NCBI RefSeq assembly: GCF_000284455.1
Contig: NC_017039.1
Coordinates: forward strand, 3,330,001 to 3,362,000
Length of the DNA stretch: 32,000 nt
Direction: 5' to 3'
From: Synechocystis sp. PCC 6803 substr. PCC-P
Lineage (GTDB): Bacteria; Cyanobacteriota; Cyanobacteriia; Cyanobacteriales; Microcystaceae
Each line of letters starts with the position of its first letter. Within the stretch, counting starts at the first letter, position 1. The translations under genes and the position numbers were made by a program. The notes below the pieces were generated by a model. It was not told the DNA's origin and ran no database searches. It worked only from the letters and a program-made list of their open reading frames with translations. This document shows, one piece after another, positions 1,071-16,380 of the stretch.

Positions 1071-2873
1071 ATGGCATTAATCGTTCAAAAATTTGGCGGC
1101 ACTTCCGTTGGCACTGTGGAGCGTATTCAAGCGGTGGCCCAACGCATTAAACGAACTGTGCAGGGAGGCAACTCCCTGGTGGTGGTGGTGTCGGCCATGG
1201 GAAAAAGCACCGATGTGTTAGTGGATTTAGCCCAACAGATTTCCCCCAATCCCTGTCGCCGGGAGATGGATATGTTACTTTCCACCGGGGAACAGGTATC
1301 CATTGCTTTGCTGAGTTTAGCCTTGCAGGAAATAGACCAGCCCGCCATTTCCCTCACCGGAGCCCAGGTGGGCATCGTCACCGAGGCCGAACATAGCCGG
1401 GCCCGCATTCTAGAAATTCGTCCCGATCGCCTGGAGCACCATTTAAGGGAAGGGAAAGTGGTGGTAGTGGCTGGTTTCCAGGGCATCAGTAGCGTAGAAC
1501 ATCTAGAAATTACTACCCTGGGACGGGGCGGCTCAGACACCTCTGCCGTGGCCCTGGCGGCGGCATTGAAAGCGGATTTTTGCGAAATTTACACCGACGT
1601 ACCGGGTATTCTCACCACTGATCCCCGTTTAGTGCCGGAAGCCCAACTGATGGCGGAAATCACCTGTGACGAGATGTTGGAATTAGCCAGTCTGGGGGCG
1701 AAAGTACTCCATCCCCGGGCGGTGGAAATTGCCCGCAATTATGGCATTCCCTTGGTGGTGCGTTCCAGTTGGAGTGATGAACCGGGCACAAAAGTAGTGG
1801 CTCCCCCGGTGCAAAACCGTTCCCTGGTAGGGCTTGAAATTGCCAAGGCAGTGGATGGGGTGGAATACGACGCCGATCAAGCCAAAGTCGCTCTGTTGCG
1901 AGTGCCCGATCGCCCTGGGGTGGCATCAAAATTATTTCGGGATATTGCCCAACAACAGGTGGACATTGATTTAATTATTCAATCCATCCATGACGGCAAC
2001 AGTAATGACATTGCTTTCACTGTTGTCAAAGATTTACTCAATACAGCGGAAGCCGTTACCAGCGCCATTGCCCCGGCCCTACGCAGTTACCCCGAAGCGG
2101 ATCAGGAAGCGGAAATTATTGTCGAAAAAGGCATCGCTAAAATTGCCATTGCCGGAGCCGGTATGATCGGTCGTCCTGGCATCGCCGCCAAAATGTTCAA
2201 AACTTTGGCCGATGTGGGGGTCAACATTGAAATGATTTCCACTTCGGAAGTGAAAGTTAGTTGTGTTATTGATCAACGGGACGCAGACCGGGCGATCGCC
2301 GCTTTATCCAATGCTTTTGGGGTAACTTTATCTCCGCCGAAAAACCAAACGGACACTTCCCATTTACCAGCGGTGCGGGGGGTAGCCCTGGACCAAGACC
2401 AGGCCCAAATTGCCATTCGCCACGTACCCGATCGCCCTGGCATGGCAGCCCAACTGTTCACCGCCCTAGCAGAAGCCAACATCAGTGTGGACATGATTAT
2501 CCAATCCCAACGCTGTCGCATTAATCAAGGCACCCCCTGCCGGGACATTGCTTTTATGGTGGCGGAAGGGGATAGCAGTCAGGCTGAGGCGATTTTGCAA
2601 CCCCTGATCAAAGATTGGCTCGATGCGGCCATAGTTGTGAACAAAGCCATTGCCAAAGTCAGCATTGTCGGTTCCGGCATGATTGGCCATCCGGGGGTGG
2701 CGGCCCACTTCTTTGCTGCCCTGGCCCAGGAAAATATCAACATTGAAATGATTGCCACGTCGGAAATCAAAATCAGTTGTGTGGTGCCCCAGGATCGGGG
2801 AGTGGATGCTTTGAAAGCTGCCCACAGCGCCTTTAACTTAGCTGGCACGAAAACCGTCACTGTTCCAGCTTAG
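1071..2873 (+). CDS. lysC: Aspartate kinase, long cyanobacterial form with duplicated C-terminal ACT regulatory regions
   Basis: 600-aa ORF. The N-terminus is IVQKFGGTSVG, followed by VVVSAMG..TD and GRGGSDT kinase motifs. Two successive ACT-pair regions follow (LLRVPDRPGVASKLF... and IAIRHVPDRPGMAAQLF...). Confidence 0.95.
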   Translation: MALIVQKFGGTSVGTVERIQAVAQRIKRTVQGGNSLVVVVSAMGKSTDVLVDLAQQISPNPCRREMDMLLSTGEQVSIALLSLALQEIDQPAISLTGAQVGIVTEAEHSRARILEIRPDRLEHHLREGKVVVVAGFQGISSVEHLEITTLGRGGSDTSAVALAAALKADFCEIYTDVPGILTTDPRLVPEAQLMAEITCDEMLELASLGAKVLHPRAVEIARNYGIPLVVRSSWSDEPGTKVVAPPVQNRSLVGLEIAKAVDGVEYDADQAKVALLRVPDRPGVASKLFRDIAQQQVDIDLIIQSIHDGNSNDIAFTVVKDLLNTAEAVTSAIAPALRSYPEADQEAEIIVEKGIAKIAIAGAGMIGRPGIAAKMFKTLADVGVNIEMISTSEVKVSCVIDQRDADRAIAALSNAFGVTLSPPKNQTDTSHLPAVRGVALDQDQAQIAIRHVPDRPGMAAQLFTALAEANISVDMIIQSQRCRINQGTPCRDIAFMVAEGDSSQAEAILQPLIKDWLDAAIVVNKAIAKVSIVGSGMIGHPGVAAHFFAALAQENINIEMIATSEIKISCVVPQDRGVDALKAAHSAFNLAGTKTVTVPA

Positions 2874-3073
2874 ATCCTACTTTTCAAACACTCTTTAAAG
2901 GATTAAAAGAATATCTTTACTTTACGATTCACTTACCCTATCTATGAATGCTTTGAACTACTGGCTGAGCTGATCAGTCAAGTCGGAGTTCTGCTTACTT
3001 CTCGCCCCGTTAGCCAAAATACAAAATAACATTAACGTATAGTCTTAACCATTATTAGACGATTCAAATACAA

Positions 3074-4069
3074 ATGACCAGAAATGTCCAGTTTGAAATC
3101 GCACTCTCCTTCGCAGGCGAAGATAGAGAATACGTTGATCGCGTCGCCAATCTTTTGCGTGAGGCTGGTGTAACTGTTTTCTATGACATTTTTGAAGAAG
3201 CCAATCTCTGGGGCAAAAACCTCTACGACTATCTTTCTGAGATTTATCAGGATAAGGCATTATTTACAATAATGTTCATTTCGGAACACTATTCAAGAAA
3301 GATGTGGACAAACCACGAACGGCAGGCAATGCAAGCTCGGGCCTTCCAAGAGCACCAGGAGTACATTCTTCCTGCACGCTTTGATGAAACCCCTATTCCG
3401 AGCGTCCTCCCAACAGTTGGCTATATTTCACTTCGAAGCAAGACACCCGAGGAATTCGTCGAAACAATCAAGCAAAAACTTATCGCTACTGGAAGAACAG
3501 TGCCATCCGCTTCGCTCAGGCGGGACTTCTTCACATTTGAAACCATTCTACGGCGTGAGCCAATCCATGCCACAGTCACCGTTATTGACTCCTCAGAGAA
3601 GCCGGTCGCATCCGCAATCGTTGTAGCAATCGCAGACAACAACACAACTAAGCAAGCTCAAACAGATCACTCAGGCATTGCCAAACTTGACATACCAACA
3701 CGTCGGAAATACCAGTTGTTAGTCGCACATCCACAGTATCCCGGATCCATAGTTTCAACTTGGGATCCAGGATATGATATTCGAATAGTTGTGACTACAG
3801 TAGAGAATACAGGCTCAGTAATCTGCCATAGTACCTGCCACATTCCGGGTTTAGAGGGCCGCCTTAATCCAATACTCGATACCGGCTTTCGTAAGTATCT
3901 GTACGCCGACAACATCGCTATCGACGGCGGCAAACAACAACCGGCACACTTCGAGATAGACTCCCCAATTGAATTAGAAGACTCGAACGGCCTAGTTATG
4001 CTAGTGCGGGTACTTCACATACAGGGCAGAACATCGCTCATCCAATATGTACGACCCTGCAACGCCTAA
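3074..4069 (+). CDS. TIR-domain protein (N-terminal TIR_2-like domain, C-terminal beta-sandwich-like plus unknown domain)
   Basis: 331-aa ORF with an ATG start. It shows FEIALSFAGEDREYV...GVTVFYD...LWGKNL...FISEHYSRKMWTNHE, with Glu82 (nt 3317-3319) where bacterial TIR NADases carry the catalytic Glu. Residues ~165-240 (TVTVIDSSEKPVASAIVVAI...TDHSGIAKLDIP..KYQLLVAHPQYPG) resemble a carboxypeptidase-regulatory-like beta-sandwich. I do not recognise the last ~90 aa. Confidence 0.8.
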   Translation: MTRNVQFEIALSFAGEDREYVDRVANLLREAGVTVFYDIFEEANLWGKNLYDYLSEIYQDKALFTIMFISEHYSRKMWTNHERQAMQARAFQEHQEYILPARFDETPIPSVLPTVGYISLRSKTPEEFVETIKQKLIATGRTVPSASLRRDFFTFETILRREPIHATVTVIDSSEKPVASAIVVAIADNNTTKQAQTDHSGIAKLDIPTRRKYQLLVAHPQYPGSIVSTWDPGYDIRIVVTTVENTGSVICHSTCHIPGLEGRLNPILDTGFRKYLYADNIAIDGGKQQPAHFEIDSPIELEDSNGLVMLVRVLHIQGRTSLIQYVRPCNA

Positions 4070-4200
4070 CGCGCCTTGCACGATTTTTTGGAAATTTGCC
4101 CGAGTTTTGGTTAAATGCACAACATTCAGTCGATTTATGGGATGTGGCCCAGGCAAGTGAGGAAGATATTTCCAAAATTCGGCCACTCAACGTTGTCTGA
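4051..4200 (+). pseudogene. Relic 3' end of a HigA-family (XRE-HTH) antitoxin gene
   Basis: Frame 1 reads ...TTLQRLTRLARFFGNLPEFWLNAQHSVDLWDVAQASEEDISKIRPLNVV* with TGA at 4198-4200. ARFFG..PEFWLN.Q...DLW is the characteristic C-terminal signature of HigA antitoxins (compare E. coli HigA ...[20 protein letters not shown]). There is no HTH N-terminal half and no start codon. The frame has a stop at 3970-3972 and overlaps the end of the TIR ORF. Confidence 0.5.
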
Positions 4201-4233
4201 TTTTTTCATTGCCTTCATGCCAAAATTTAGGGA

Positions 4234-6375
4234 GTGGTTTATCCACAAACCTTTTTCCTGCGACTTAAACCTTTCCGTTTTTCCATCACCATGACCCACA
4301 CCGCCGTTGCCAATCCGCTCCTTCAAGGCCGGGACTTGCCTGCCTTTGACAAAATTCAACCCACCGATGTGGAGCCCGCAGTGACTACCCTGGTGCAGGA
4401 ATTAGAAGCCCAATTAACTGAGTTAGAAAAATCTGTGCAGCCCACCTGGGAAGGATTGGTGGAACCTCTGACGGCCCTGGAAGAAAAACTGAGTTGGACC
4501 TGGGGCACCGTTTCCCATTTGATGGGGGTGAAAAATAGCCCCGAATTGCGCCATGGCTTTGAACAAGTGCAACCGTTAGTGGTAGGTTTCATTAGTCGGT
4601 TGGGGCAGAGTCGTCCCCTTTATGAAGCCTTTGTGGCCCTGCGGGATAGCGCTGAATGGGGAAATCTAGAACCAGCCCAGCAACGGATTGTGGAAAGTAA
4701 TATCCGGGAAGCGGAACTAGGGGGCGTAGGTTTAACGGGGGAAAAACGGGACAGGTTTAACGCCATTCAATTGGAATTAGCGGAACTGGCCACCAAATTT
4801 TCCAATAACGTGTTGGATGCCAGCCAAGCGTTTGAGTTGAAACTGACCACCAAGGAAGAAATTGCCGGCTTGCCACCGAGTTTATTGGCTTTAGCCGCCC
4901 AAACTGCCCAACAGAAAGGGGAAGACAATGCTACTCCCGAGGAGGGCCCCTGGCTAATTACCTTGGACTATCCTAGCTATCTTCCTTTTATGAAATATAG
5001 CCAACGGGAGGATCTGCGGGAAAAGGTTTACCGGGCGTTTATTCGTCGGGCAGCGGATGGGCAGTGGGATAACCATCCCTTAATTGAGAGAATTTTGGCG
5101 CTACGGTTGGAAAAAGCCCAGTTGCTAGGTTTTGAAACCTATGCAGAGTTAAGTTTGTCCCGCAAAATGGCCCCCAATGTGGCCGCAGTGGAAAAACTGT
5201 TGGAGGAGTTACGGGTTCCCAGTTATAAGGCGGCGGAGCAGGAATTTGCCGATCTACAGAAATTTGCTGGGGTGGAAGAGCTACACCATTGGGATACGGC
5301 CTATTGGTCAGAACGGCAACGGGAACAGGAATTTGATTTTGATGCGGAGGCTCTGCGGCCCTATTTCCCCCTACCCCAGGTACTGGAAGGATTATTTGCC
5401 TTGGCTAAGCGACTATTTGGGGTCACCATTCAAGCCAGTGAAGAAGAGGTTCCTGTTTGGCACCCGGATGTGCAATTTTTCCGAGTGTTGGATGAATCGG
5501 GCACGGCGATCGCCAGTTTTTATTTAGATGCCTACAGTCGGCCGGCGGAAAAACGGGGCGGTGCCTGGATGGCGGATTGCTTAAACCGGGGTCAGGAATT
5601 AATCAATGGGCAAAAATCCCTACGTTTGCCAGTAGCTTATCTAATTTGTAACCAAACGCCGCCGGTGGGGGATCAGCCCAGCCTGATGACTTTTTACGAA
5701 GTGACTACCCTGTTCCATGAATTTGGCCATGGGTTGCAGCATTTACTAACCACCGTTAATTACAGCGGTGCGGCGGGCATCAATAATGTGGAATGGGATG
5801 CGGTGGAACTGCCCAGTCAGTTTATGGAAAATTGGTGCTATGACCCCACCACCCTGTTTAGTTTGGCCAAGCATTACCAAACCGGGGAGACTTTGCCCCA
5901 GGCGGAATACGAAAAAATCCTCGCCACCCGCAACTTTATGACCGGCTCTGCCATGCTCCGGCAGATTAACTTCAGCCTGCTGGATTTAGAACTACACCAC
6001 CGTTACCGTCCCGACGGCCCGGAAACCATTGAGCAAATTGGCGATCGCCTGGCGAAAATCACCACCATTTTGCCTCCCCTGCCGGAAAATGCTTTCCTCT
6101 GCTCCTTTGGCCACATCTTTGCCGGGGGCTATGCCGCCGGTTACTACAGCTATAAATGGGCGGAAGTACTCAGTGCCGATGCCTTTGCCGCCTTTGAGGA
6201 GGTGGGCTTAGACAATGAAGCTGCGGTGCAAACTACGGGTAAACGTTTTCGAGAAACGGTGTTGGCCTTGGGGGGAAGCTTAGCGCCCGCAGTGGTCTTT
6301 GAAAAATTCCGGGGGCGACAACCGCAAACTGCTCCGCTGTTGCGTCATAACGGTTTGTTACCCAGTGCAACCTGA
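4234..6375 (+). CDS. prlC: Oligopeptidase A, M3-family zinc metallopeptidase
   Basis: The ORF carries the HEFGH zinc motif (TTLFHEFGHGLQH) and M3 family blocks (GGAWM, YAAGYYSYKWAEVLSADAF). The longest ORF starts at GTG 4234. ATG 4291 (MTHTAVANPLLQ) is a plausible alternative start. Confidence 0.92.
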   Translation: MVYPQTFFLRLKPFRFSITMTHTAVANPLLQGRDLPAFDKIQPTDVEPAVTTLVQELEAQLTELEKSVQPTWEGLVEPLTALEEKLSWTWGTVSHLMGVKNSPELRHGFEQVQPLVVGFISRLGQSRPLYEAFVALRDSAEWGNLEPAQQRIVESNIREAELGGVGLTGEKRDRFNAIQLELAELATKFSNNVLDASQAFELKLTTKEEIAGLPPSLLALAAQTAQQKGEDNATPEEGPWLITLDYPSYLPFMKYSQREDLREKVYRAFIRRAADGQWDNHPLIERILALRLEKAQLLGFETYAELSLSRKMAPNVAAVEKLLEELRVPSYKAAEQEFADLQKFAGVEELHHWDTAYWSERQREQEFDFDAEALRPYFPLPQVLEGLFALAKRLFGVTIQASEEEVPVWHPDVQFFRVLDESGTAIASFYLDAYSRPAEKRGGAWMADCLNRGQELINGQKSLRLPVAYLICNQTPPVGDQPSLMTFYEVTTLFHEFGHGLQHLLTTVNYSGAAGINNVEWDAVELPSQFMENWCYDPTTLFSLAKHYQTGETLPQAEYEKILATRNFMTGSAMLRQINFSLLDLELHHRYRPDGPETIEQIGDRLAKITTILPPLPENAFLCSFGHIFAGGYAAGYYSYKWAEVLSADAFAAFEEVGLDNEAAVQTTGKRFRETVLALGGSLAPAVVFEKFRGRQPQTAPLLRHNGLLPSAT

Positions 6376-6508: not shown

Positions 6509-7312
6509 GTGTCCATTCAACTCGGTATCATCGGCGGTGGAGTAATGGCTGAAGCCATCCTGGCCCGCTTAATCGCAGAAAAGACCTATGCCCCAGAAGA
6601 AATAATTGTGGGGGAGCCCCACGGTGCCCGGCGGGATTATCTCCAAAAAACCTATCAAGTTCGGGTTTCCCCCGATAACCAAGAGGCGGCTAATGTTTCT
6701 GAAGTGCTGCTGTTGGCCGTCAAACCCCAGGTGCTAGACCGGGTGCTAGCCAGTTTAGCAGGAGGAGCCAATCGTCCCCTGGTAATTTCCATTTTGGCCG
6801 GGGTTTCTCTGCAAAGAATTCAAAAGGGTTTTCCCGACCATGCCATCATCCGGGCCATGCCCAATACCCCCGCCACCGTTGGGGCCGGTATGACGGCGAT
6901 CGCCGCGAATAAAATGGTGGAGCCGGATCAGTTGGCTAAGGCTAAGGCCATCTTTTCGGCGGTGGGCAATGTGGTGGAGGTGCCGGAAAATTTAATGGAT
7001 GCGGTGACGGGGGTTTCCGGTTCGGGACCGGCCTACGTAGCTTTGATGATCGAAGCCCTGGCCGATGGTGGTGTTTTGGCCGGATTACCCAGGGCGATCG
7101 CCCAAAAATTGGCTTTGCAAACAGTGTTGGGCACAGCGGAGTTAATCAAGGAAACGGAGGAGCACCCTGCCCAGATTAAAGATAAAGTTACCAGTCCGGG
7201 GGGCACCACCATTGCTGGGGTAGCGGTATTGGAGAAGATGGGTTTTCGTTCCGCCATCATCGAAGCAGTGCGGGCGGCCTATCGCCGTTCCCAGGAATTG
7301 GGCAAAAAATAA
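6509..7312 (+). CDS. proC: Pyrroline-5-carboxylate reductase
   Basis: 267-aa ORF with a GTG start. It has the Rossmann N-terminus LGIIGGGVMAEAI, LLAVKPQ, RAMPNTPA and the C-terminal TSPGGTTIAG signature. Confidence 0.93.
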   Translation: MSIQLGIIGGGVMAEAILARLIAEKTYAPEEIIVGEPHGARRDYLQKTYQVRVSPDNQEAANVSEVLLLAVKPQVLDRVLASLAGGANRPLVISILAGVSLQRIQKGFPDHAIIRAMPNTPATVGAGMTAIAANKMVEPDQLAKAKAIFSAVGNVVEVPENLMDAVTGVSGSGPAYVALMIEALADGGVLAGLPRAIAQKLALQTVLGTAELIKETEEHPAQIKDKVTSPGGTTIAGVAVLEKMGFRSAIIEAVRAAYRRSQELGKK

Positions 7313-7326
7313 ATGGACAACGGAAT

Positions 7327-8796
7327 TTAATGCAGCGCTTGATGCAAACTTTTCAAACTAGGCAAATCGAACATCAAAGCATCGTCGGGGTTAACTTCTG
7401 TGAAATGGTGTACTAGCAATAGGCCCACAATGGTCCAGGTTTGGTAGGAACGGGATTGTTGCCCGACCCAAAAGCCCGTGGGGCCATCAAAATATTCAGC
7501 CCATTTATGCTTGGGCAAACGGCGCAAAAGCACCTCATAGTTATTGCGAATTAGGTTCCCCATTTCCGCATACTCCACCGTGCCGTAGTTGGAATGGCAG
7601 CTATGGCGGAGCACCGCCACCACCAGAAACCAAAATAAACAGGGCCAATGGCCGGCGTTGTGGTAGCACCAGGGTAAATTTTTGCGGTCAAAGCCGGTTT
7701 TACTGCGCCAATCGTCATCTTTGAGGGGGGGATGGCAAATCCTCAGGGGCATTTGGGCACATAACTCCCGCTGATTATTTAATACCAAACGGAAAAAGGA
7801 ACGTTGCTGGGCCAAGCTAGTGACATCGAAAATTGCCCCCAAGCAATTACCCAGGGAGAAAAAGCGAAAATCGGGGCGACCCGTGCGGATATTGCCGATT
7901 AAATAGCCTCCCCGATCGCCGAGCCAATCCTGGAGCCAGTTGGGAATGGTTTCTGTGTGGACATTATGTTCGTTGCTGGCTTCTTCACCGTACTGTTCCG
8001 TGGGACGGCGGCGGAGAGCTTGGACAATATTGCAATTAATCCAATAATGCTTGAGCAGATAGGTGCGGAGTTTTTTGAGCCAATCCACACTCAGGTTAAA
8101 TTGATGACTCTGCTCCATCGTGAAGCTGTCAAAAGGATGGTCTTTATTGCTGCAATAACCCTTCGCCTTGAGGTCGATTAACAGTAACCCCGCCGCACTT
8201 TTCAGGGCTCCGTAGAGCAGGGTTTGGATTTCCAACGGCGCTCCCCACACATCCATGGGGCGGTCAATCATAAAGGCCCCGTCGGGCACAAACAAAGTGG
8301 GTGCATCCCGAAAGACTGGATGGAGAATGAGGTTTAAAAACTTTTGTAGCCCCAATTGCACATGGGTTTGTCTAGCCCAGGCTTCATTGCCGGTTCTTTG
8401 CACGTAGTAATAGGCCAAAATAGGCCACCAGAGGGACGCATCCACCGAGCAAACTCGACCGATCGCCCGTTGGCCATAGTCTGCCTTGAGTTCATGGTTT
8501 TCCGTTTCCACAAAACTAGTGGGAAAAATGCCGTAGGTGGGAAAGCCCTTACTTTGGAGGGTGAGGCAAATTTCCAAAAAGTTTTGGACAATTTCCGTTT
8601 CATTTTGCAGTAACAAGAAGATCATCACCGGCACATTGTCCCGAATGAAAACTTCCGTATAGTTCAAATCATGGTGATCCGATTGGGGAATGGCCGCCAC
8701 CGTCCCCACGTATTGCCCATTGATTTTGACCATGGCTTTTTCGTAGAGCAAACGGCGGGCCTGGTCTAGGATTTGTTGAGCCTGGGGGGATTTCAT
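7327..8796 (-). CDS. Alkaline/neutral invertase (glycoside hydrolase family 100)
   Basis: 489-aa ORF with blocks typical of cyanobacterial and plant neutral invertases (YTEVFIRDNVP, DASLWWPIL, GGYLIGNIRTGRPDFRFFSLGN, CYHNAGHWP, LWF). Confidence 0.9.
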   Translation of the reverse strand: MKSPQAQQILDQARRLLYEKAMVKINGQYVGTVAAIPQSDHHDLNYTEVFIRDNVPVMIFLLLQNETEIVQNFLEICLTLQSKGFPTYGIFPTSFVETENHELKADYGQRAIGRVCSVDASLWWPILAYYYVQRTGNEAWARQTHVQLGLQKFLNLILHPVFRDAPTLFVPDGAFMIDRPMDVWGAPLEIQTLLYGALKSAAGLLLIDLKAKGYCSNKDHPFDSFTMEQSHQFNLSVDWLKKLRTYLLKHYWINCNIVQALRRRPTEQYGEEASNEHNVHTETIPNWLQDWLGDRGGYLIGNIRTGRPDFRFFSLGNCLGAIFDVTSLAQQRSFFRLVLNNQRELCAQMPLRICHPPLKDDDWRSKTGFDRKNLPWCYHNAGHWPCLFWFLVVAVLRHSCHSNYGTVEYAEMGNLIRNNYEVLLRRLPKHKWAEYFDGPTGFWVGQQSRSYQTWTIVGLLLVHHFTEVNPDDALMFDLPSLKSLHQALH

Positions 8797-9706: not shown

Positions 9707-9955
9707 TTAACATTCGTTTGGTATTCTGTCATATGGTTCCGGCTCAACATCGGGAACCTTAGACAAAATCGCTTCATACTTTAACCGACTACCTCTTGTA
9801 GCTCTTTCTTTAAGATAATTTTCAGTCATTAAAGCAGAGACTTTTTCGGCGATCGCACTAGATATAAATTGGTCTATGGAAATTCCATCACGAGTGGCAA
9901 GGTCAGACAAGCTTTTGTGTAATGAGTCAGGAATTTGAACTTGAACAATACTCAT
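9707..9955 (-). CDS. Ribbon-helix-helix type antitoxin (HicB/CopG-like)
   Basis: 82-aa ORF. The pattern IQVQIPDSLHKSLSDLATRDGISIDQFISSAIAEKVSALMTENYLKERA is the recurrent cyanobacterial RHH antitoxin pattern. It overlaps the upstream PIN ORF by 4 nt (9952-9955). Confidence 0.7.
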   Translation of the reverse strand: MSIVQVQIPDSLHKSLSDLATRDGISIDQFISSAIAEKVSALMTENYLKERATRGSRLKYEAILSKVPDVEPEPYDRIPNEC

Positions 9956-10386
9956 GGCAACTTTCCTATTACGCGTAAAAACTCTGAAGGCTCCAGGACA
10001 TTTAACCCAAACTGCTCTACGCCGACAAAATCACGAGCGTTATAGGTGATTATAGTCTGACAGCCCGCTTTGACGGCAAGCTCTAACACCATTTCATCTT
10101 TGGGATCACGTAGGAAAGGTCGCCAAAGAAAGAAAATTTCATGTCGTATTCCTACTGCACAGTAGAAATCAATTAATTCACCAACTTCTTCAGAACTCAA
10201 GTAAAGGTTCGGCAATTCCCGTAGTAAAACTTCTTCGTATTCGAGCAGTAAAGGGACTGACAAGTGCATGTCAAATTGCTCTGTACCAACCAGGGTAAGT
10301 AACCTAAACGAACTACCACGCCTAGACCTTAATCCAGCAATAATAGCTTGTTTGCAAAGTTGTATTTTGCCCCCTAAATCCCCCAA
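9952..10386 (-). CDS. PIN-domain (PIN_3-like) toxin, 5' end remodelled by a repeat element; possibly inactive
   Basis: The body is PIN_3-like (LSVPLLLEYEEVLLR, RDPKDEMVLELAVKAGCQTIITYNARDF). The longest ORF begins at a TTG that lies inside the MITE-like repeat (10349-10459). The segment where the first PIN acidic motif (LDTN) is expected reads QLCKQ. The first in-frame ATG is at codon 40. Confidence 0.6.
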   Translation of the reverse strand: MGDLGGKIQLCKQAIIAGLRSRRGSSFRLLTLVGTEQFDMHLSVPLLLEYEEVLLRELPNLYLSSEEVGELIDFYCAVGIRHEIFFLWRPFLRDPKDEMVLELAVKAGCQTIITYNARDFVGVEQFGLNVLEPSEFLRVIGKLP

Positions 10387-10459
10387 TACTGGGGGACTTT
10401 TAATACTTTCCCCCCAAACTTGGGGGGCTAGGGGGGCATTTAAAACAGACTCTAACGAC
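10349..10459. repeat. MITE-like palindromic dispersed repeat, copy A
   Basis: This ~111 bp element has G/C-run inverted halves (gccccctaaatcccccaa ... ttggggggctaggggggc). Its reverse complement aligns along its whole length, with one ~9 nt indel, to 27267-27379. The matching ends include ...agagyctgttt... and ...aactttScaaaca. Confidence 0.7.
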
Positions 10460-10683
10460 TTGGGGTAATGACATTAAAAACTGGAAAACAATTCATATCA
10501 ATAAGTCTCAACTCTATCACGGCAAGAGTGGAGTACGGTTTGAAGCCCATTCCAGCACTTTATCATCAAATTTAATCAGGGGTTAAACAGCGATCGCCCC
10601 CTCAGAGTCACTGGGCAAGTTGGGATAGTTCACTGTAGTTGGGCTTAAAATCAAAGGCAGTTTACTTACCGCTGGAGCAAGCC

Positions 10684-12771
10684 ATGGAAGGGCAGTCAAT
10701 CGAACTAGAACTAAGTGTCATGGCAATGCCGGAGTTAATCGACAGTACTGAAGCAGGCCATACCGCCGGGGTGAAAACTGATTCCAATCCCCAGGCGATC
10801 GCCCAAGACCGTCGTTGGACCATTGACGACAGCGAAAACCTCTACCGCATCACTGGTTGGGGGGAACCTTACTTTTCCATTAATGCGGCCGGCCATGTGA
10901 CCGTTTCTCCCCAGGCTGACCATGGGGGAGCGTTGGATTTGTACGAACTGGTTAAGGGTTTGAGGCAAAGAAATATTGGCTTGCCTTTACTGTTGCGCTT
11001 TTCTGATATTCTGGCTGACCGCATCAATCGCCTCAATGCGGCCTTTGCCCGGGGCATTGCCCGTTACCGCTATCCCAACACCTACCGGGGGGTTTATCCC
11101 ATTAAGTGCAACCAGCATCGCCACATTGTGGAATCCCTGGTGCGCTACGGCACTCCCTATAATTTTGGCTTGGAAGCCGGTTCTAAACCGGAGTTGATGA
11201 TTGCCCTGGCTATGCTCCAACCCCAGGAGAACCCAGAGCCGGATCAACAAAATCAGCCTTTACTAATTTGTAATGGTTATAAAGACCGGGAATATATTGA
11301 AACCGCCTTGCTAGCCCGTCGTCTGGGGCATCGGCCGATTATTGTGGTGGAGCAGGTAGCGGAGGTGGCCTTGGCCATCGAAATTTCCAGCAATCTGGGC
11401 ATTAAGCCAATTTTGGGGGTACGGGCCAAACTGAGTACCCAGGGCATGGGCCGTTGGGGCATTTCCACTGGCGATCGGGCTAAATTTGGTTTAACCATCC
11501 CGGAAATGTTGACGGCGATCGAGCAACTGCGCCGAGCTGATATGTTGGACAGTCTGCAATTGCTCCATTTTCACATCGGTTCCCAGATCTCTTCCATCTC
11601 TGTGATCAAAGAAGCGATGACGGAAGCCAGCCAAATTTTTGTCCAGTTGGCCAAGCTGGGGGCCAATATGCGCTACCTGGATGTGGGGGGCGGACTAGGG
11701 GTGGACTACGACGGTTCCAAAACCAATTTTTACGCTTCCAAAAATTACAACATCCAGAATTACGTTAATGATGTGATTTCGGCAGTGCAGGATGCCTGTG
11801 TGGCCGCTGAAGTGCCCTGTCCTGTGCTGATTAGTGAAAGCGGCCGGGCGATCGCCAGCCATCAGTCAGTACTCATTTTTGATGTTGTGGCCACCAATGA
11901 CATTAATCCCCCCTTGCCTAAGGTGAAGGGCAAAGACCATGCCATTTTGCGTAATTTGATGGAAACCTGGGAAACCATTACGGTGGATAATTACCAAGAG
12001 GCGTACCATGATGTGGAACAGTTTAAAACTGAAGCCATTAGTTTATTTAACTTTGGTTATTTAGGTCTGAAAGAAAGGGCTAAAGCAGAGGAGCTTTATT
12101 GGGCTTGTTGCCGCAAGATTTTACAAATTTGCCGTCAGCAAGAATACGTCCCCGATGATTTGGAAAATTTGGAAGTTAACTTGGCTTCTATTTACTACGC
12201 CAATATGTCGGTGTTTCAGTCGGCCCCGGATTCCTGGGCGATCGATCAACTTTTCCCGATTATGCCCATCCACCGTTTGGATGAAGAACCCACCCAGCGG
12301 GGCATTCTGGCGGATATTACCTGCGACAGTGATGGCAAAATTGACCAATTTATTGACCTGCGGGATGTCAAATCAGTATTGGAATTGCATCCTTTAATAG
12401 AAGTGCATCAGCCAGGGACTCCCCCCAGGGTGGAACCCTATTATTTGGGCATGTTTTTGGTGGGGGCTTACCAAGAAATTATGGGTAATTTACATAATTT
12501 ATTTGGGGACATCAATGTGGTGCATATTCAGATGAATCCGAAAGGTTACCAAATTGAACATTTAGTGAGGGGGGATACCATCGCCGAAGTGTTGGGCTAT
12601 GTGCAGTACGATCCCGAAGATTTGCTGGAAAATATGCGCCGCTACTGTGAACAGGCCATGGAAGATAAACGTATGAGCTTGGAGGAAGCCCAATTATTGC
12701 TGGAAAATTACGAGCGCAGTTTGTTGCAATACACCTACCTCAAGCCCACTTCAGGCATCCACACCAGCTAA
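10684..12771 (+). CDS. speA: Biosynthetic arginine decarboxylase (PLP-dependent)
   Basis: SpeA family blocks are present: YPIKCNQ (PLP lysine), FGLEAGSKPEL, HFHIGSQI, LDVGGGLGVDY, ESGRA, CDSDG. I chose ATG 10684 (695 aa). The longest ORF starts at TTG 10639. Confidence 0.93.
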   Translation: MEGQSIELELSVMAMPELIDSTEAGHTAGVKTDSNPQAIAQDRRWTIDDSENLYRITGWGEPYFSINAAGHVTVSPQADHGGALDLYELVKGLRQRNIGLPLLLRFSDILADRINRLNAAFARGIARYRYPNTYRGVYPIKCNQHRHIVESLVRYGTPYNFGLEAGSKPELMIALAMLQPQENPEPDQQNQPLLICNGYKDREYIETALLARRLGHRPIIVVEQVAEVALAIEISSNLGIKPILGVRAKLSTQGMGRWGISTGDRAKFGLTIPEMLTAIEQLRRADMLDSLQLLHFHIGSQISSISVIKEAMTEASQIFVQLAKLGANMRYLDVGGGLGVDYDGSKTNFYASKNYNIQNYVNDVISAVQDACVAAEVPCPVLISESGRAIASHQSVLIFDVVATNDINPPLPKVKGKDHAILRNLMETWETITVDNYQEAYHDVEQFKTEAISLFNFGYLGLKERAKAEELYWACCRKILQICRQQEYVPDDLENLEVNLASIYYANMSVFQSAPDSWAIDQLFPIMPIHRLDEEPTQRGILADITCDSDGKIDQFIDLRDVKSVLELHPLIEVHQPGTPPRVEPYYLGMFLVGAYQEIMGNLHNLFGDINVVHIQMNPKGYQIEHLVRGDTIAEVLGYVQYDPEDLLENMRRYCEQAMEDKRMSLEEAQLLLENYERSLLQYTYLKPTSGIHTS

Positions 12772-15767: not shown

Positions 15768-16028
15768 ATGATGAGAGCTTTTGAGGTAATGGCCACAGTT
15801 AAAGATTCCAAACAATTGCTCTTGGATAGTGATTTGCATTGGAATACCAGCCGAGTCAAGGTGATTATTTTGGAATCAGATGAATTGGCATCAAAAGGAA
15901 GTGAGTTTGATCCTGATGACACGCCTGTCGAAGAAATTAAGGTGAGTTTGAGGAAGGCATTAGAGGAATATAAACAAGGAAAAAGAATTCCAGTAGAAAA
16001 TATGTGGGAGGGAATTGATGTCGAATAA
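15768..16028 (+). CDS. Antitoxin of a RelE/ParE-type TA pair
   Basis: 86-aa ORF with a GAGGA-like RBS upstream. The C-terminal EEIKVSLRKALEEYKQGKRIPVENMWEGIDVE is a recurrent cyanobacterial antitoxin tail. It overlaps the toxin ORF by 14 nt. Confidence 0.65.
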   Translation: MMRAFEVMATVKDSKQLLLDSDLHWNTSRVKVIILESDELASKGSEFDPDDTPVEEIKVSLRKALEEYKQGKRIPVENMWEGIDVE

Positions 16029-16380
16029 TCTCCATTTAGTCAATATCGACTTCACCCCCGAATATAGGAGAAGTTTAAAATATTTAGCCAAGAAATATCG
16101 AAATATTCGTTCTGATGTTCAGCCCATTATTGAGGCTTTGCAAAAAGGCGTCATTAGTGGTGATCGCCTGGCAGGGTTTGGCTCTGATATTTACGTCTAT
16201 AAGCTTAGAATTAAGAATAGTAATATTCAGAAAGGGAAAAGTTCTGGCTACCGATTAATTTATTTACTCGAATCAGAAAACAGTATTTTGTTGTTAACCA
16301 TTTACAGTAAAGCTGAACAAGAAGATATTGCCGCTAGTGACATTAATTCAATTTTAGGGGAGTACTCCATAGAAGACTAA
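16015..16380 (+). CDS. RelE/ParE-superfamily toxin
   Basis: 121-aa ORF. The patterns YKLRIKNSNIQKGKSSGYRLIYLLESENSILLLTIYSKAEQEDI and F.K..KKL.. are typical of RelE/ParE (HigB-like) toxins. Confidence 0.8.
   Translation: MMSNNLHLVNIDFTPEYRRSLKYLAKKYRNIRSDVQPIIEALQKGVISGDRLAGFGSDIYVYKLRIKNSNIQKGKSSGYRLIYLLESENSILLLTIYSKAEQEDIAASDINSILGEYSIED

Follow-up and report, generated by a model that had tools for sequence, protein, structure and literature searches.

A foreign TIR gene between lysC and prlC of Synechocystis sp. PCC 6803 joins a predicted NADase to a shuffled C-terminal module and is a candidate single-gene defence system

Several described antiphage systems consist of a single polypeptide in which a TIR NADase is joined to a region of another kind. 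Precedents are SpbK (PMC11984713) and TIR-II, V, VI and IX of E. coli, where 12 of the 32 tested TIR loci defended (PMC11350192). These reports describe a requirement for the catalytic glutamate, an abortive-infection-like action triggered by phage components, and horizontally mobile genes (PMC11984713; PMC11350192). The NIR-HEAT protein ‘Vulcan’ is a one-protein TIR-like defence with a fused sensor (10.64898/2026.09.04.749371). In pSlfn5 (RorSlfn5), a C-terminal Ig-like beta-sandwich binds a phage structural-assembly protein and sets specificity, and experiments have shown that Schlafen sensors can be swapped between effectors (PMC13056530). The subject here is a gene of Synechocystis sp. PCC 6803 substr. 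PCC-P, found at 3074-4069 of a 32-kb window (the whole stretch analysed, 32,000 nucleotides, positions 3,330,001 to 3,362,000 of NC_017039.1). It encodes a TIR domain followed by a C-terminal module (hereafter ‘the module’) that recurs on many other effectors. The favoured explanation, given a probability of roughly 0.55, is a standalone single-polypeptide defence protein of the abortive-infection type, brought by horizontal transfer into the lysC-prlC interval, a defence hotspot.

By analogy, the protein functionally resembles the single-protein TIR systems most closely, and also pSlfn5 with its swappable sensor. It shares with SpbK and the E. coli systems a single chain composed of a TIR NADase, predicted in the present case, and a non-TIR region (PMC11984713; PMC11350192). 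In SpbK, however, the TIR domain is C-terminal and not N-terminal as here, and the spbK model matches the TIR part only (E=0.001). The E. coli proteins carry TPR, transmembrane, AAA, DUF4238 or no extra domain instead of a beta-sandwich module. Between the sensor parts of the present protein and those of SpbK or the E. coli systems no homology was found. With bSEFIR, Vulcan and Evangelion the likeness lies in the one-protein layout, in which a TIR-like NADase (a predicted one in the present protein) stands at the N-terminus and an auxiliary or sensor region at the C-terminus, and SEFIR-module and DUF4062-module fusions exist among the module's relatives. The sensor of Vulcan is nevertheless made of HEAT repeats and that of Evangelion is a short AUX tail. 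The design of pSlfn5, compared by description only, follows the same logic of an N-terminal effector and a C-terminal beta-sandwich, and one module protein (P0376) has the AlbA_2 N-terminus. In pSlfn5 it is the sensor that varies, but half of the module studied here, its C-terminal domain, is highly conserved. A link to the ligand-binding domain of Metis/Vesta was rejected, as the MisA sensor is a different, N-terminal PUA-like domain. The gene had been read in an earlier note, made from the letters alone, as what would be an unusual minimal defence architecture. The combination of sensor and TIR effector in one chain has gained strong comparative support, but a single-protein TIR system is not in itself unusual, given the SpbK and E. 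coli precedents. The parts of the gene are as follows.

3074..4069, + strand: TIR-module gene, a complete open reading frame (ORF) in the ORF list, with ATG start and 331 amino acids (aa) plus stop.
3074..3493, + strand: TIR domain (aa 1-140), predicted NAD+ glycohydrolase/cyclase effector, from Pfam, PDB sequence and Foldseek matches.
3317..3319, + strand: GAA codon of Glu82, the predicted catalytic glutamate, from the W78-x-x-x-E82 motif and the AbTIR alignment.
3494..3553, + strand: poorly conserved linker (aa 141-160), with column conservation of 0.68 and a predicted local distance difference test (pLDDT) score below 50-61 where the C-terminal model begins.
3554..3802, + strand: transthyretin/CarboxypepD_reg-like beta-sandwich (aa 161-243), the most variable domain.
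3803..4066, + strand: beta-rich C-terminal domain of ~85 aa (aa 244-331; pLDDT 87-95).

The ORF is present exactly as given in the earlier note, and its translation contains all the motifs quoted there. CP129343.1 and AP012495.1, which encode the exact LysC of the window, have the same 331-aa gene at this place, in the order FemAB-like, lysC, 331-aa TIR gene, prlC, proC and GH100 invertase. By the gene order of PCC 6803 it is presumably slr0658, a tag to be taken as provisional. The TIR assignment rests on profiles and structure alike. Residues 9-126 match Pfam TIR_2 (PF13676) with E=1e-17 and 65.2 bits against a gathering score of 28. The full-length AlphaFold model (pLDDT 76) displays the flavodoxin-like TIR fold and is matched in Foldseek by the TIR structures PdTIR (3h16), BtTIR (7uxr) and TcpB (4lqc), with template modelling (TM) scores to target of 0.63-0.70, that of PdTIR being 0.70; SPARTA TIR domains also match. 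A search of PDB sequences ranks two bacterial TIRs with enzymatic activity, AbTIR and BtTIR, highest. There W78-T-N-H-E82 of the query pairs with WTNYE of the AbTIR chains 7uwg and 8g83, the Glu of which is the catalytic residue according to the TIR NADase literature. Both W78 and E82 are invariant in 87 of 87 family members. Judged by its sequence, the domain is a bona fide TIR_2 member with the catalytic Glu, so that the TIR fold and the catalytic position of Glu82, both proposed earlier, stand.

A PADLOC run, suggested earlier as a check, matched the protein in its TIR region only. The best match, PDC-S66 (5.2e-14), is confined to the TIR core, with profile positions 146-239 of 282 placed on aa 4-100. 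Membership in PDC-S66 was rejected on this partial alignment: a genuine member, found at a sister locus (L096), matches positions 144-280 and carries DUF1883. True PDC-S66 proteins moreover have the reverse order, with DUF1883 N-terminal and TIR C-terminal, and share no sensor with the present protein. Weaker PADLOC matches are likewise limited to the TIR region, namely bSEFIR (E=9e-6, positions 43-184 of 412), spbK (E=0.001) and three ThsB1 matches on the TIR core (2e-4, 5.9e-3, 2.1e-2). The bSEFIR assignment was set aside because of that partial coverage and because Pfam SEFIR falls below threshold (E=0.01), and the SpbK assignment because only the TIR core aligns. NCBIfam holds no family specific to the TIR-module protein.

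The second half of the protein forms a confidently predicted structure. The AlphaFold model of aa 146-331 (pLDDT 88.9, predicted TM score 0.83) has two packed beta domains. For the first, Foldseek finds transthyretin-like/CarboxypepD structures (9hfj, 3e8v and 5aq0) with TM scores to target of 0.67-0.77. A seven-stranded prealbumin-like fold is recognized in 9hfj, 3e8v, 5aq0, 2nsm and 3mn8, with scores up to 0.77 over ~83 residues. In Pfam, aa 168-227 match CarboxypepD_reg (5.7e-6, 27 bits) under the gathering score of 32.3, and the same family is matched at E<=1e-3 by 55 of 113 module relatives, best 1.8e-14. The carboxypeptidase-regulatory-like beta-sandwich proposed earlier is thus borne out by structure, with a Pfam match below threshold (27 against 32.3 bits). 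The well-superposed Foldseek matches, the best of which are themselves transthyretin-like/CarboxypepD structures, cover at most ~83-95 aligned columns, in an output that omits the identity of the aligned query residues, and for that limited span the second beta domain is left without fold assignment. Over the last ~85 aa a Pfam scan gave no match and a PDB profile search nothing significant; Foldseek against PDB and BFVD returned generic beta-sandwich matches only (phage tail-fibre in BFVD). This domain has a highly conserved motif, GS..(x)..IPGLxGRLNPILD...YLYADNIAI.GG..QP..F....LED..G, and nine of its residues (S248, G262, A278, N280, Q289, P290, E302, D303 and G306) are invariant in 87 of 87 members. 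Conservation is uneven along the chain. Among 42 non-redundant relatives, mean pairwise identity is 73% in the TIR domain, 66% in the C-terminal domain and 43% in the beta-sandwich. The latter may be considered a candidate specificity determinant, since it evolves fastest, as expected for a specificity surface.

Among 1.84 billion cluster representatives (clusters at 50% identity), a profile of the module (aa 146-331) finds it in 575 proteins at E<=1e-3 and in 129 at E<=1e-30. Domain mapping indicates that the beta-sandwich and the C-terminal domain occur nearly always together as one unit of ~160 aa, and in 150 diverse proteins both co-occur as one hidden Markov model unit, at positions ~20-182. 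The beta-sandwich and the unassigned stretch of ~90 aa into which the C-terminal half was divided earlier are therefore not two independent pieces. The unit is mostly C-terminal and sometimes N-terminal; two to three tandem copies or an extra preceding C-terminal domain occur. Its partners are diverse. A Pfam scan of 113 module proteins detects the TIR-like families TIR_2 (28), TIR (5), SEFIR (3), CAP12/PycTIR-type TIR (2) and DUF4062 (2), as well as caspase (3), PIN_8 (3), PIN_12 (2), Trypsin_2 (2) and Peptidase_M48 (2), and others, including Pkinase (3), HipA (1) and HATPase_c_4 (2). The bSEFIR profile is matched by five of the 113, best 3e-61. Architectures comprise Trypsin-(C-terminal domain)-module x2, Pkinase-module x2 (with a PD-T4-6/mad6-like kinase), ParA-like ATPase-TIR-module, KAP/AAA_16 NTPase-module (P0332), HipA-module, PIN_8-module, caspase-module, PycTIR-type TIR-module, Schlafen AlbA_2-HATPase_c_4-module (P0376), AbiEi-module and a weak HEPN-module. 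BLAST clustering distinguishes at least 45 partner regions. In every protein whose match extent was inspected (20 individually), PADLOC and Pfam models cover the effector parts only and leave the module itself uncovered. Two plasmids carry half-length matches. On NZ_CP040287.1 (H2, Nostoc sp. C057) the match is of the TIR subtype, at 52% identity, within a gene annotated as a GUN4-domain protein; on NZ_CP133151.1 (H3, Sinorhizobium) it is the C-terminal module, at 48% identity, in a different TIR protein. These half-length matches show that TIR and module halves recombine independently. Presence of one accessory unit on many toxic effectors is the recognised signature of a sensor or regulatory domain in single-chain defence proteins. 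The logic that a shared accessory domain is a sensor or regulator is stated in the NIR/DUF4062 preprint and borne out by experiment for the Schlafen Ig-like sensors; effector swapping of this kind is typical of a defence sensor.

To look for a partner gene, all ORFs in the +/-5 kb surroundings of the gene were clustered for 87 loci of the family, which correspond to ~40 non-redundant loci. Outside Aquimarina, no neighbour cluster occurs in more than three of the 87 loci, and those that do come from close relatives. Pfam analysis of the 148 nearest neighbours in the ~40 loci gives 170 families, none in more than three loci. The commonest (EcoRI, BMC, phage integrase and AAA_22) occur three times each, and the rest range from insertion sequence elements to SHMT and glutamate synthase. 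Often the gene lies between housekeeping genes or in small defence or mobile clusters. The lack of a conserved neighbour in ~40 loci indicates that the TIR-module gene is a standalone unit. The survey of homologues called for earlier thus yields a module that is retained by the family, is attached elsewhere to more than 10 effector domains and has no constant genomic companion. Next to the closest homologues, PADLOC detects the candidate system PDC-M50 immediately upstream (L001, 6822-7762; L003, 70-1013; L024, 8867-9868), made of PDC-M50A (130-138 aa) and a ThsB-like TIR protein B; it is a neighbouring system and not a conserved partner. In three Microcystis loci (L017, 235-1098; L019, 8542-9405; L021, 4703-5566), a gene for an EcoRI-family endonuclease is found just upstream of the TIR-module gene (best Pfam E=1e-149), the three Pfam matches presumably belonging to one 288-aa cluster.

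Alternatively, the protein might be a Thoeris-like signal generator, in which the module senses infection and the TIR domain makes a messenger of the cyclic ADP-ribose (ADPR) type for an effector encoded elsewhere. ThsB, too, is a TIR protein to which both the sensing of infection and NAD-derived chemistry are ascribed; AbTIR and BtTIR, the closest matches among PDB sequences, are presumably ADPR-cyclizing TIRs; and there are weak PADLOC ThsB matches (E=2e-4) as well as a ThsB-like TIR gene immediately upstream in L001, L003 and L024. Yet those adjacent genes are part of the separate candidate PDC-M50 and concern three loci only, and the protein is a TIR_2 member and not ThsB_TIR, with ThsB models at 2e-4 or worse. 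A ThsA-type gene (SIR2/SLOG, Macro-TM or caspase-like) is absent from the 32-kb window and none is recurrent in the ~40 loci, on which grounds Thoeris membership was rejected. Furthermore, in other proteins the module is joined directly to domains that can kill by themselves (PIN, caspase, trypsin, HipA, kinase and Schlafen), which argues that the domain fused at the N-terminus is the terminal effector. A Thoeris-like role is consequently improbable.

Equally unlikely is a homotypic adaptor, in which the module would be a docking domain that recruits effectors to a common complex while another component does the sensing. The near-invariant C-terminal motif over all effector fusions would fit a binding partner that is itself conserved; the module also occurs in tandem and in proteins of 170-190 aa that seem to consist of it alone; and the KAP/AAA_16 NTPase fusion (P0332) resembles NTPase-centred conflict-system architectures. 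However, no conserved neighbour in the ~40 loci could play the partner, many of the short module proteins may be fragments of short metagenomic contigs, and the module is absent from the multi-gene system models of PADLOC and Pfam wherever match extent was inspected.

The genomic position of the gene in Synechocystis, by comparison with sister strains, is that of interchangeable cargo.

2877..4300, no strand: strain-specific variable segment of ~1.4 kb, from blastn against L095 and L096.
2874..3073, + strand: AT-rich upstream intergenic region of 200 bp (G+C content 0.41), presumed promoter location.

In blastn against L095 and L096 the only parts in common are 2500-2876/2917 and 4301/4305-4700. 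Homology thus breaks off at the lysC stop codon and returns where prlC begins, which makes 2877-4300 a strain-specific cassette. In Synechocystis PCC 7339 (L095; LysC 98% identical), the slot is occupied by a 549-aa GmrSD_N/DUF262 gene at 6812-8461 on the opposite (-) strand. In GCA_025128275 (L096; LysC also 98%), a second Synechocystis lineage, it holds a 256-aa DUF1883-TIR gene at 6996-7766 (+). PADLOC assigns these alternative cargos to NsnA/GmrSD-like (6.5e-66) and PDC-S66 (8.5e-71), respectively. The slot flanks are 86-90% identical between Synechocystis strains. In relatives with LysC at 80-92% identity, synteny is lost and no TIR gene lies beside lysC. The slot has three different occupants among strains whose LysC is 98% identical. 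This indicates that the lysC-prlC interval is a compact defence hotspot in Synechocystis and that the gene is, as had been supposed, accessory at this locus and not core.

Composition points the same way as the early impression of foreign codon usage. Codons ending in A (ACA, GCA, CCA, TCA, AGA and ATA) are over-used 4- to 10-fold in the TIR-module gene: ACA makes up 56% of Thr codons against 6% in the neighbouring genes, and the corresponding values are 46% against 9% for GCA, 47% against 7% for CCA, 30% against 3% for TCA and 23% against 4% for AGA. Mean synonymous log-likelihood is -1.46, compared with -1.05 +/- 0.03 for same-size chunks of neighbouring genes, more than 13 standard deviations apart. 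The G+C content is 0.41-0.48 at the insert and 0.50-0.55 in the flanks. The lack of HIP1 sites, formerly adduced as a further sign of foreignness, is real but carries no weight, since a 1.36-kb gap is expected ~38% of the time by chance; the 32 kb contain 23 sites, and the site-free stretch (2293-5505) extends far beyond the insert. A consensus promoter scan of 2874-3073 detects no upstream site on the + strand, with counts at shuffle level, and comparison of this region with the upstream regions of the closest relatives reveals no homology beyond 9 nt.

As reported earlier, the usual TIR partners are missing, and the rest of the 32-kb window contains no SIR2/SLOG, CBASS, STING, Argonaute or Pycsar gene. 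The flanking genes are indeed housekeeping genes, but the window also includes two small toxin-antitoxin-like pairs, one of a PIN_3 (VapC-like) gene with an 82-aa partner (~9707-10386) and one of a weak RelE-like gene with a 79-aa partner (~15789-16380). An antitoxin relic once suspected at the 3′ end of the gene, at 4070-4233, finds no support, the ORFs in 4004-4359 having neither Pfam nor PADLOC match. Between the TIR gene and prlC, the segment 4070-4300 is unique to PCC 6803 among the strains compared, and 133 bp upstream of prlC that are common to two sister strains are missing in PCC 6803. For prlC itself, the mechanical ORF begins at GTG 4234 (4234-6375, 713 aa) and public calls mostly at ATG 4291 (694 aa); the shorter start is more likely in view of these public gene calls and of sister-strain homology from ~4301.

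The family is widespread. Among the top 120 of 3400 matches in a protein search, almost all have 329-335 aa, the same architecture and 64-87% identity, and named sources include Massilia, Desulfomicrobium, Halomicronema, Vibrio, Pseudomonas, Pseudoalteromonas, Pseudidiomarina and Microbulbifer. Mean column identity in a 22-sequence alignment of the family is 76%. Relatives are encoded in at least 544 species-representative genomes, from Cyanobacteria, Alpha-, Beta- and Gammaproteobacteria, Campylobacterota, Bacteroidota, Verrucomicrobiota, Acidobacteriota, Lentisphaerota and Poribacteria. The nearest relatives are non-cyanobacterial, namely a Rhodoferax metagenome-assembled genome (MAG; L010) and a metagenome contig (L001) in which the neighbouring genes TctC and OEP look proteobacterial. 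They are 86-87% identical in protein and 84% in DNA, whereas other cyanobacterial copies are only 63-68% identical to the Synechocystis protein. DNA similarity to L001 and L010 corresponds to 3065-4056 of the window, starting 9 nt before the ATG and ending before the stop. In high-GC hosts the G+C content of the gene is 0.05-0.19 under that of its flanks. Collectively, non-cyanobacterial nearest relatives, DNA similarity confined to the coding sequence and low G+C content speak for repeated recent horizontal transfer. For the Synechocystis copy, its relationship to Rhodoferax and L001 on one side and to the distant cyanobacterial copies on the other suggests recent inter-phylum transfer from a donor of intermediate G+C content. 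Carriage as an integron cassette or as transposon cargo was considered and rejected, given the absence of terminal repeats or attC-like ends and of flank homology with the closest copies.

In the favoured explanation, the N-terminal TIR domain would be the effector, an NAD+ glycohydrolase or cyclase using Glu82, and the C-terminal unit its sensor or regulator. In uninfected cells the TIR domains would be held apart or inactive. A trigger tied to infection would bind the module; it could be a phage protein, most likely a multimeric one, or else some conserved by-product of infection. The variable beta-sandwich would contribute specificity, and the conserved C-terminal domain would be a ligand- or partner-binding core or else the transmitter of binding into oligomerization. 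In other TIR NADases oligomerization assembles the active sites. Here, trigger binding may similarly drive oligomerization and the formation of composite TIR active sites, upon which NAD+ would be consumed and the infected cell would no longer support phage replication. A tentative extension is that the module is a widely shuffled infection sensor in which the near-invariant motif (GRLNPILD...YLYADNIAI...QP...LED) reads one conserved danger signal. Such a signal could be a small molecule or else some component of phage or host that is universally conserved, and not a hypervariable phage protein.

Several facts weigh against a mobile, phage-sensing defence protein. The family is unusually conserved for a sensor of phage proteins, with 64-70% identity between phyla and a length fixed at 331-333 aa, and the motif of the C-terminal domain is nearly invariant even across different effector fusions, so that a conserved ligand or partner fits better than an arms-race surface. 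The gene is absent from IMG/VR and a phage collection gives one TIR-only match; plasmids carry only half-length matches and no full-length copy; mobile-element boundaries are not recognizable around the gene; and PADLOC v2 has no model for the TIR-module protein. A partner may be encoded elsewhere in the genome. Finally, ~38 Aquimarina species or MAGs (L052-L089) have an orthologue of 45-48% identity with host-like G+C content at one syntenic site (match at ~10001-10990), flanked by a 357-aa radical-SAM-like gene on one side and by asparaginase-like or 1841-aa genes on the other. This fixation looks more like that of a core gene than of defence cargo, and genus-wide fixation is unusual for a defence gene. 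The genus-wide syntenic retention in Aquimarina with ameliorated G+C content, the very high conservation across phyla and the lone position between housekeeping genes in several genomes could also suit a non-defence role, as a horizontally acquired NAD-consuming or signalling enzyme regulated for stress or dormancy and kept for host physiology, but this is quite improbable when the Synechocystis slot holds alternative defence-type genes, distribution outside Aquimarina is patchy with non-host G+C content and codon usage, and the great majority of the other domains fused to the module are effectors of conflict systems.

The searched literature, which included few subscription journals, contains no description of the TIR-module family, of the module, of slr0658 or of TIR/CarboxypepD_reg fusions. 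The sensor module and its breadth appear new, and one-protein TIR defence as a class is already known. If the module does read one conserved danger signal as an infection sensor, it would define a new superfamily of single-chain immune proteins, with one sensor joined to more than a dozen effector types and with a natural representative in the genetically tractable Synechocystis PCC 6803. The trigger of the module, once worked out, would permit the annotation of many proteins at once, and would show whether strong conservation of a sensor goes with detection of a conserved danger signal. To our knowledge, few cyanobacterial defence systems have been studied experimentally. The TIR version would be a one-gene system, encoded in at least 544 species and in a model cyanobacterium, with a mechanism that is directly testable, and the lysC-prlC slot would offer a clean and minimal example of a defence hotspot in Synechocystis.

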